64,000 bases of DNA from Escherichia coli. Its GTDB lineage: Bacteria > Pseudomonadota > Gammaproteobacteria > Enterobacterales > Enterobacteriaceae. Shown here piece by piece: positions 54,213 to 56,763 of the stretch (its first letter is position 1; the number at the start of each line of letters is the position of its first letter). The notes beneath the pieces were generated by a model, which searched no databases, was not told the origin of the DNA, and was given only the letters and a program-made list of their open reading frames with translations. The position numbers were made by a program, and so were the translations under genes. Location of the stretch: assembly GCF_046105845.1 (NCBI RefSeq), contig NZ_CP151004.1, one strand, 5' to 3'.

Positions 54213-55502
54213 ATGACGCGCCGTGCTATCGGGGTGAGTGAAAGACCGCCACTTTTACAGACAATCCCGCTTAGTTTGCAACATTTGTTCGCCATGTTTG
54301 GTGCAACCGTCCTGGTGCCCGTCTTATTTCATATTAACCCGGCGACTGTACTGTTATTTAACGGTATAGGAACACTGCTGTATCTCTTCATCTGTAAAGG
54401 GAAAATTCCGGCTTATCTTGGTTCCAGCTTTGCCTTTATTTCACCGGTATTGTTACTGTTGCCGTTGGGGTATGAAGTCGCGCTGGGCGGCTTTATTATG
54501 TGCGGCGTGCTGTTCTGCCTGGTTTCTTTTATCGTGAAGAAAGCGGGGACCGGCTGGCTGGACGTGCTGTTTCCACCTGCGGCAATGGGCGCAATCGTTG
54601 CCGTCATCGGTCTGGAGCTGGCGGGCGTAGCTGCCGGTATGGCAGGTTTACTCCCGGCTGAAGGGCAAACTCCAGACTCCAAAACCATCATCATCTCCAT
54701 TACCACGCTGGCGGTTACGGTTTTAGGTTCCGTGCTGTTTCGTGGTTTCCTGGCAATTATCCCGATTTTAATTGGCGTGCTGGTGGGCTACGCGCTCTCT
54801 TTCGCAATGGGAATTGTCGATACCACGCCGATTATTAATGCTCACTGGTTTGCGCTGCCAACTCTCTATACGCCGCGCTTCGAGTGGTTTGCCATTCTGA
54901 CTATTCTGCCAGCGGCGTTAGTGGTTATTGCCGAACACGTAGGGCACCTGGTGGTAACGGCTAATATCGTCAAAAAAGATCTGCTGCGCGATCCTGGTCT
55001 GCACCGTTCGATGTTTGCTAACGGCTTGTCGACCGTGATCTCCGGCTTCTTTGGCTCCACGCCAAATACCACCTACGGGGAAAACATTGGCGTGATGGCG
55101 ATCACCCGTGTTTACAGTACCTGGGTTATCGGCGGGGCAGCGATTTTCGCTATCCTGCTTTCCTGCGTCGGTAAACTGGCTGCTGCTATCCAGATGATCC
55201 CATTGCCGGTGATGGGCGGCGTTTCGCTGCTGCTTTATGGTGTCATCGGTGCTTCCGGTATTCGTGTTTTGATCGAATCGAAAGTGGATTACAACAAAGC
55301 ACAGAACCTGATCCTGACTTCCGTGATTTTGATCATCGGTGTCAGCGGCGCGAAGGTAAACATCGGCGCGGCGGAGCTGAAAGGTATGGCGCTGGCGACC
55401 ATCGTCGGTATCGGCTTAAGTTTGATCTTCAAACTGATTAGTGTGCTGCGCCCTGAAGAAGTGGTGCTGGACGCAGAAGACGCGGATATAACAGACAAAT
55501 AA
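54213..55502 (+). CDS. uraA: uracil:H+ symporter (NCS2 family)
   Basis: Start at [10 protein letters not shown] (429 aa); polytopic membrane protein. Confidence 0.93.
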
Positions 55503-55596
55503 TGTACCGACCGGGCAGTGTTGCTGCCCGGTTCAAACATCATGGGATTCTGTGGTAAACTTCTCGCGATTTTGTGAAATCCTGGTTGAGGTATCT

Positions 55597-56298
55597 CTGA
55601 ACACACCGGCACAGCTCTCTTTGCCACTTTATCTTCCTGACGACGAAACCTTTGCAAGTTTCTGGCCGGGGGATAACTCCTCTTTACTGGCCGCGCTGCA
55701 AAACGTGCTGCGTCAGGAACATAGCGGTTACATCTATCTCTGGGCACGCGAAGGCGCGGGGCGCAGCCATCTGCTGCACGCGGCTTGCGCGGAATTGTCG
55801 CAGCGTGGCGATGCGGTGGGCTATGTCCCGCTGGATAAACGCACCTGGTTTGTTCCGGAAGTGCTCGACGGTATGGAGCATTTGTCGCTGGTCTGTATCG
55901 ACAACATTGAGTGTATTGCAGGCGATGAGTTGTGGGAGATGGCGATTTTCGATCTCTACAATCGAATTCTGGAATCGGGCAAAACACGGTTGTTGATCAC
56001 CGGCGATCGTCCACCGCGGCAGTTGAATCTGGGATTACCGGATCTCGCGTCGCGACTCGACTGGGGGCAGATCTACAAATTGCAGCCACTTTCTGATGAA
56101 GATAAGTTGCAGGCGCTACAGTTACGCGCGCGTTTGCGTGGTTTTGAACTGCCGGAAGATGTGGGGCGTTTCTTGCTGAAGCGGCTCGACAGAGAAATGC
56201 GCACGTTATTTATGACGTTGGATCAGCTGGATCGTGCGTCGATTACCGCGCAACGTAAGCTGACCATTCCGTTTGTGAAAGAGATTCTGAAACTGTAG
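55597..56298 (+). CDS. hda: DnaA-inactivating AAA+ protein Hda, with non-canonical CUG start
   Basis: In-frame CTG at 55597 gives (M)[15 protein letters not shown], 233 aa; the ATG at 55552 gives a 15-aa extension. Confidence 0.8.
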
Positions 56299-56311
56299 AC
56301 AAGACGTTTAT

Positions 56312-56375
56312 TGTCGGATGCGCACCCATAGTATTCGTCGGCCGGATAAGACGCGGCAAGCGTCGCATCCGGCAA
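56312..56375. repeat. REP element
   Basis: GCCGGATAAGACGCGGCAAGCGTCGCATCCGGC palindromic REP unit. Confidence 0.75.
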
Positions 56376-56403
56376 TGTGCTTCAACTAGCGATGGAGCAC
56401 TTC

Positions 56404-56763
56404 TTAACCCACGATTTCCAGCACCTGCTCCGGTGGACGACCAATTCGCGCTTTGCCATTCGCGACCACAATCGGGCGCTCCATTAGCTTCGGATTATCC
56501 ACCATTGCCTGAATCAGCGCCTCTTCGCTAAGCGAACTGTCAGCCAGGTTCAGTTCTTTATAAAGATCCTCTTTCTGGCGCATCAATTCACGAGCGCTAT
56601 TCATCCCCAGCATTTTCAGCAAATCACGCAGCGTTGCCGCATCGGCGGGTGTCTCAAGGTAGAGCACCACTTCTGGCTCCACGCCGTTTTCTTTCAGCAG
56701 GTTTAGCGTTTCCCGGCTCTTTGAACAGCGTGGGTTATGGTAGATTTTTACCTGTTTGGTCAT
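56404..56763 (-). CDS. yfgD: ArsC/Spx-family putative reductase
   Basis: 119 aa; N-terminal Cys (NPRCSKSRETL) typical of ArsC family. Confidence 0.85.
   Translation of the reverse strand: MTKQVKIYHNPRCSKSRETLNLLKENGVEPEVVLYLETPADAATLRDLLKMLGMNSARELMRQKEDLYKELNLADSSLSEEALIQAMVDNPKLMERPIVVANGKARIGRPPEQVLEIVG

Follow-up and report, generated by a model that had tools for sequence, protein, structure and literature searches.

The window analysed here, a stretch of 64,000 nucleotides from Escherichia coli (NCBI RefSeq assembly GCF_046105845.1, contig NZ_CP151004.1), carries on its plus strand the uracil permease gene uraA (54213..55502 in the mapped RefSeq annotation and the list of open reading frames, with a TAA stop at 55500-55502) and, beyond a 94-nt spacer, hda (55597..56298), whose 233 codons and TAG stop encode the DnaA inactivator Hda, an AAA+ protein. 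Hda and the DNA-loaded sliding clamp switch off the initiator DnaA after each round of initiation. The open reading frame that contains hda spans 55552-56298 on the plus strand, comprises 248 codons and opens with a GTG (55552..55554), the formerly annotated start of a 248-residue Hda, which is rejected as a start in this work. A CTG (55597..55599) lies in the same frame 15 codons further on and yields the 233-codon form. An earlier note, made from the sequence alone, had described the 248-residue frame and the internal CTG giving 233 residues, and both are borne out by the sequence and the open reading frame list. The same note had taken the codon at 55552 for an ATG; this has to be amended, as the codon at 55552-55554 is GTG; the closest ATG begins at 55542 and belongs to a different frame.

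Three RefSeq records mapped to the window, including that of K-12 MG1655 (b2496; NP_416991.2 / WP_001307333.1; NC_000913.3), give hda as 702 nt (233 aa) from CTG 55597. K-12 hda, the case cited in the earlier note, is the same gene with the same CTG start as in the window, and the only differences between the two strains are point substitutions and the REP-containing spacer downstream of hda. Between the window and E. coli chromosomes the identity is 99-100%. Out of 5426 complete E. coli genomes, 5425 contain a match to segment 55450-56350 at 95-100% identity; the match covers hda, and uraA lies upstream. A single genome out of these 5426 had no hda match, another carried two copies, and one of the 5428 hda matches was located on a record typed as a plasmid. 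Most E. coli genomes cease to match at about window position 56322, in the spacer between hda and arsC/yfgD (56299-56403), which contains a REP-like palindromic sequence (GCCGGATAAGACGCG...CGCATCCGGC) and measures 106 nt in some strains and 138 nt in others. The position of this match end and the strain-dependent spacer length suggest that the REP content downstream of hda is variable.

The encoded protein is Hda beyond doubt. It scores 476.6 bits against the NCBIfam model NF005982 (cutoff 268) and 281.4 bits against TIGR03420 (cutoff 194.8), it is matched by the Shewanella structure PDB 3bos (E = 2e-73), and its close homologues carry PF00308 and PF22688, corresponding to an AAA+ DnaA-type domain and an Hda lid domain. 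The family match covers residues 14-248 of the 248-residue translation, leaving the first 13 residues of the extension outside the family model. Chain E of PDB 5x06, E. coli Hda, is identical to residues 16-248 of this translation, from MNTPAQ on; in the crystallised chain MNTPAQ directly follows the tag, and the paper describing this structure of Hda with the clamp numbers its residues 1-233. One deposited E. coli Hda (P0001, 258 aa) displays a 25-residue tandem duplication in the AAA+ domain, which may reflect either natural variation or an error of assembly.

Codons 6-11 counted from the CTG (55612..55629, read from the sequence) spell QLSLPL, the N-terminal sliding-clamp-binding motif, whose established form is QL[SP]LPL. 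This clamp-binding motif is required for Hda function, and its location at codons 6-11 implies that the start of hda must lie upstream of QLSLPL. Among distant Hda representatives carrying the motif, its first residue is found at positions 2-8 in 93 of 123 proteins, with a mode of 4. Initiation at the CTG places the E. coli motif at Q6, which is typical of the family, whereas initiation at the GTG would place it at Q21, an outlier.

Evidence for initiation at CTG 55597

The 2014 annotation places the start of hda 45 nt away from that of 2006, and manual inspection of tetracycline ribosome profiling (TetRP) data assigned hda to class '3. 2014', meaning a signal at the 2014 initiation site, the CTG, and not to the class 'multiple' (PMC4909307 Table S3). 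EcoGene 3.0 (PMC3531124) lists the CUG start, credits it to Su'etsugu et al. 2008 (J Biol Chem 283:36118) and attributes to the same study both the protein N-terminus (Met-Asn-Thr-Pro...) and a loss of expression upon mutation of the CUG. The start of hda at CTG 55597 was experimentally shown in 2008 and is already present in the reference annotation; it is correct and it is not new. The earlier note had proposed that Hda is initiated at CUG and not at the upstream codon, and had added that this was demonstrated experimentally in K-12. The first statement agrees with RefSeq, EcoGene 3.0, TetRP, structure and conservation, the second with the credit given in EcoGene 3.0, and the ribosome profiling that the note had suggested as a check places the signal at the CTG.

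In order to examine conservation, hda loci were collected from 80 species-level Enterobacteriaceae genomes, making 81 sequences with the window, and five other Enterobacterales (Yersinia, Erwinia, Hafnia, Proteus and Dickeya) were added for a total of 86 sequences including the window; for an Edwardsiella Hda protein (P0043) the contig location was not found. An ungapped 233-codon frame extends from the CTG in 86/86 sequences. The CTG itself is present in all 86 and never replaced by TTG, GTG or ATG, and it is preceded at a distance of 4 nt by GAGGT, again in 86/86 (81/81 Enterobacteriaceae and 5/5 others). This pattern of conservation is far beyond chance. When the 86 distinct coding sequences were compared codon by codon, 27 columns read as leucine in every genome, and the CTG start alone uses a single codon; the other 26 invariant leucine columns each employ 3-6 synonymous codons, the commonest of which accounts for 28-88%. 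Among the other invariant degenerate columns, only one of 135 is frozen to a single codon. The CTG is constrained at the nucleotide level beyond the amino-acid constraint, as is required of a CUG-initiated gene.

Canonical codons fail to account for the conserved N-terminus of Hda on either side of the CTG. Upstream, 46 of the 81 Enterobacteriaceae sequences lack any in-frame ATG, GTG or TTG in the interval from the closest preceding in-frame stop to the CTG, and in 26 of them this interval amounts to only 6 sense codons. Downstream, the first canonical start is at a codon offset of at least 8 (36 in 21 genomes), inside or past QLSLPL. That no canonical start explains the conserved N-terminus is a second property required of a CUG-initiated gene.

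The 45 nt preceding the CTG vary in a different manner from the codons that follow it. Their mean non-majority fraction is 0.19, 0.21 and 0.18 at the three codon positions, that is, equal at all three, whereas the 30 codons downstream of the CTG show the usual coding signature (0.06, 0.008 and 0.20). Furthermore, the -10 hexamer of the promoter described below and the CTG are separated by 33 to 39 nt, with frame-breaking length changes in 32 of the 81 sequences. The upstream alignment consists of discrete conserved blocks with no reading frame, indicating that the '15-codon extension' is non-coding. The comparison of codons 1-15 with codons 16 onward, which had been suggested as a check, therefore gives the result expected of DNA evolving as non-coding upstream of the CTG.

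Promoter and leader in the uraA-hda spacer

The uraA stop codon is followed by a G+C-rich hairpin (55509..55533, plus strand) of 11 pairs with a GTT loop and no T-run, whose 3' arm abuts the -35 element of hda. When 55500-55545 is folded, 4 further outer pairs form and the energy is -22.2 kcal/mol (z = -4.6). A CCGGGC...GCCCGG hairpin is found in 81/81 Enterobacteriaceae sequences, its inner pairs and loop being variable. A terminator scan did not flag the hairpin at 55509-55533, which we ascribe to the missing T-run. It is probably a stabilising structure of the uraA 3' end or a leaky terminator; since the T-run is missing, read-through uraA transcripts carrying the GTG probably exist.

On the plus strand, immediately beyond the hairpin, conservation and published mapping together delineate a promoter. 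Its -35-like hexamer TTCAAA (55532..55537), of which the first TT is invariant and the next C nearly so across species, is separated by 18 nt from an extended -10 element TGgTAAACT (55553..55561; TGn followed by TAAACT). In the latter the TG, TA and ACT are invariant in 81/81 sequences and the third base of the hexamer is A in 71/81. Mendoza-Vargas 2009 (PMC2760140 Table S1) reported for hda the -35 sequence 'tgccCGGTTCAAAcatc', also given as 'CGGTTCAAA', and the -10 sequence 'ctgtGGTAAACTtctc', also given as 'GGTAAACT', with a -10/-35 distance of 18 and the entry '-10 ext. (TG): yes'. The transcription start site of the hda-specific mRNA listed in the same table, at +17 from the then-annotated GTG (454 reads, frequency 3, flagged 'New; downstream gene 1'), corresponds to window position 55569 (about 55568-55569, plus strand), 7-8 nt past the -10 hexamer and within a conserved CG(A/T)TT; its support consists of three 454 reads from one study (PMC2760140). 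The only hda transcription start site given by Kim et al. 2012 (PMC3415461 supplement) has 2 reads and falls within uraA, 620 nt before the old start, equivalent to about window position 54932; its support is low. The portion of the Cappable-seq supplement (PMC4782308) covered here contains no entry near the hda locus. A generic promoter scan of 55200-56500 reported no site, as could be expected from the weak -35 and the reliance on the TG extension.

The last two bases of the GTG at 55552-55554 are the TG of the extended -10 element. Across the 81 sequences T55553 and G55554 are invariant, whereas G55552 is present in only 74. The '15-codon extension' holds the hda promoter, and the old start codon is situated inside the gene's own promoter. 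With a transcription start at about 55569, downstream of GTG 55552, the hda-specific mRNA lacks this codon and cannot use it. An 11-codon open reading frame at 55542-55577 (ATG GGA TTC TGT GGT AAA CTT CTC GCG ATT TTG TGA) overlaps the hda promoter in another frame. It was considered as an upstream open reading frame and rejected, its ATG being upstream of the transcription start site and varying between species, and it probably has no significance.

The 5' untranslated leader of hda, about 28 nt long (55569..55596, plus strand), has no significant structure, and across species it displays indels and no codon periodicity. The fold of 55569-55640 (-9.3 kcal/mol, z = +0.82) is no better than that of shuffled sequences, so that a structured regulatory leader is not supported, and no Rfam match was obtained for 55400-55700. 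The leader contains the invariant Shine-Dalgarno sequence GAGGT (55588..55592, plus strand), 4 nt before the CTG, which forms the strongest duplex with the anti-Shine-Dalgarno sequence in the region: -8.9 kcal/mol for the CTG, or -7.0 when restricted to positions -17 to -4, as compared to -4.3 for GTG 55552 and -1.7 for TTG 55621. A Shine-Dalgarno sequence at working distance is the third property required of a CUG-initiated gene. The description of the 15 upstream codons as a non-coding leader in the earlier note was right as to their non-coding nature and incomplete as to their content, since the -10 element, the transcription start site, the 5' untranslated region and the Shine-Dalgarno sequence are all located there.

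Three other ways of initiating hda were weighed against these data. A dual initiation, in which the CUG would give the main 233-residue Hda and the GTG a minor 248-residue isoform on read-through upp-uraA transcripts, strikes us as quite improbable. Read-through is plausible given the uraA hairpin without T-run, the GTG is in frame without an intervening stop in E. coli and its closest relatives, and a number of other genes have dual sites according to Nakahigashi et al.; hda, however, was scored by the TetRP study as having its signal at the 2014 site and not as 'multiple', and Shine-Dalgarno pairing at the GTG is poor. Moreover, no more than 8 of the 81 sequences have a GTG in frame at offset 15, so that any long isoform is not conserved and a functional role for it is unlikely.

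That GTG 55552 is the true or main start, giving an Hda of 248 residues, is very improbable. This codon opens the longest open reading frame with a canonical start and was the original annotation, a His-tagged Hda built on the long annotation was reported to be active (PMC3905854), and the 248-residue form is still output by non-curated gene callers (for instance P0002, with 3510 member sequences). Nevertheless, the GTG shares bases with the invariant TG of the extended -10 element and lies upstream of the mapped transcription start site, its pairing with the anti-Shine-Dalgarno sequence is weak, and the 15 codons that follow have no coding signature and suffer the frame-breaking indels noted above. 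In addition, 46 of the 81 sequences are devoid of any upstream in-frame canonical start, the TetRP signal is at the CTG and not at the GTG site (PMC4909307), and the resulting position of the clamp motif at residue 21 is atypical of the family. Finally, translation from the in-frame TTG 55621 (Leu9), a recognised bacterial start codon and the first canonical start downstream of the CTG in 44 of 81 sequences, deserves next to no credence, as it has no Shine-Dalgarno sequence, is not conserved (TTG in 46/86, CTG or TTA in 40/86), would remove half of the invariant QLSLPL and is at odds with RefSeq, PDB and TetRP, which put the start at 55597. Every line of evidence supports CTG 55597 as the start of hda.

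The CUG start and the level of Hda

Taken as a whole, an hda gene initiated at CUG 55597, encoding a 233-residue Hda and transcribed from its own promoter is to our minds almost certainly the right explanation. The sigma-70 promoter of hda, located in the 94 nt between uraA and hda, has a weak -35 and an extended -10; transcription starts at about 55569, leaving GTG 55552 within the promoter and out of the hda-specific mRNA. GAGGU, in the unstructured 28-nt leader and 4 bases before the CUG, positions the 30S subunit there, and the initiator tRNA reads the CUG as formyl-methionine to give the 233-residue protein. Public records and papers establish the annotation, the ribosome-profiling signal and the transcription start site, and our own analysis the conservation pattern and the energetics of the Shine-Dalgarno pairing. 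The weak pairing at the CUG makes initiation inefficient and would act as a built-in throttle holding Hda scarce.

Initiator tRNA on CUG has a mismatch at the first position and inserts formyl-methionine, and it is this poor pairing with the initiator anticodon that makes CUG initiation inefficient. The 2008 study reportedly argued that the inefficient CUG limits Hda to roughly 100 molecules per cell. In reporter assays, CUG initiation amounts to 1-2% of that from AUG, as compared to 10-100% for GUG and UUG (bioRxiv 10.1101/063800). From the sequence comparison we infer that the combination of a strong invariant Shine-Dalgarno sequence and an invariant weak codon may have been selected to hold Hda low and fixed; the lack of any change in 86 genomes to TTG, GTG or ATG, each of which would initiate with greater strength, points to selection against stronger initiation. 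A throttle keeping Hda scarce is likely to be the purpose of the CUG start.

The AUU start of infC, the gene of initiation factor IF3, resembles that of hda in being a conserved, inefficient, non-canonical start that sets the level of a dosage-sensitive protein. The infC AUU is a feedback sensor, since IF3 discriminates against AUU; we know of no demonstration of feedback of the IF3 type for hda. By analogy, the frozen CUG could go beyond a fixed throttle and make Hda synthesis inverse to IF3 activity, because IF3 polices non-canonical initiation as it does with the AUU of infC, thereby coupling DnaA inactivation to the state of translation. We regard this extension as tentative and rather unlikely. 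A second confirmed CTG-initiated gene of E. coli K-12 is yfjD; conservation and a ribosome-binding site led to the prediction of its start, which start-codon mutagenesis then confirmed (EcoGene 3.0, PMC3531124). Both yfjD and hda are chromosomal genes with a CTG start, albeit with unrelated proteins. To our knowledge, yfjD has no link with replication control.

Starts of hda in other families

Outside Enterobacteriaceae, hda is widely annotated as encoding 235 aa with the N-terminus 'MLLNTPAQ'. The corresponding DNA of Yersinia, Erwinia, Hafnia, Proteus and Dickeya reads GAGGTG CTT CTG AAy. In these five loci (L084-L088) the site in question is about 9 nt upstream of the CTG (locus positions 601-609); the annotated GTG ends the GAGGTG, and the conserved CTG comes two codons after this GTG with the same 4-nt Shine-Dalgarno spacing as in E. 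coli. This arrangement implies that the annotated GTG is the tail of the Shine-Dalgarno sequence, and hda is probably two codons too long both in the 235-residue annotations and in NCBIfam model NF005982, which has 235 positions. Proteus has another AGGT further upstream that might act for the GTG, for which reason we word the two-codon over-extension as probable.

Six more distant gammaproteobacterial hda genes (L089-L094) have GTG, TTG, GTG, TTG, GTG and ATG as called starts. Non-ATG starts make up about 18% of the annotated starts of well-annotated bacterial genomes (bioRxiv 10.1101/063800), as compared to 5/6 in this very small sample of caller-defined starts, which hints that weak initiation might be a general trait of hda. 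Both the over-extended annotations and the weak-start trait have more support than the coupling of Hda synthesis to IF3.

The CUG of hda is a textbook-grade non-canonical bacterial start. Its publication dates from 2008, and EcoGene, UniProt-style numbering, RefSeq and PDB all have it fixed, so that its identification adds nothing for E. coli. Our analysis makes three small additions: the old start lies within the promoter, the CUG is frozen in 86 Enterobacterales genomes, and hda is probably over-extended by two codons in many public annotations outside Enterobacteriaceae. A correct N-terminus matters because the clamp-binding motif is located six residues from the N-terminus of Hda, and the 15 extra residues in the old annotation do not belong to native Hda.
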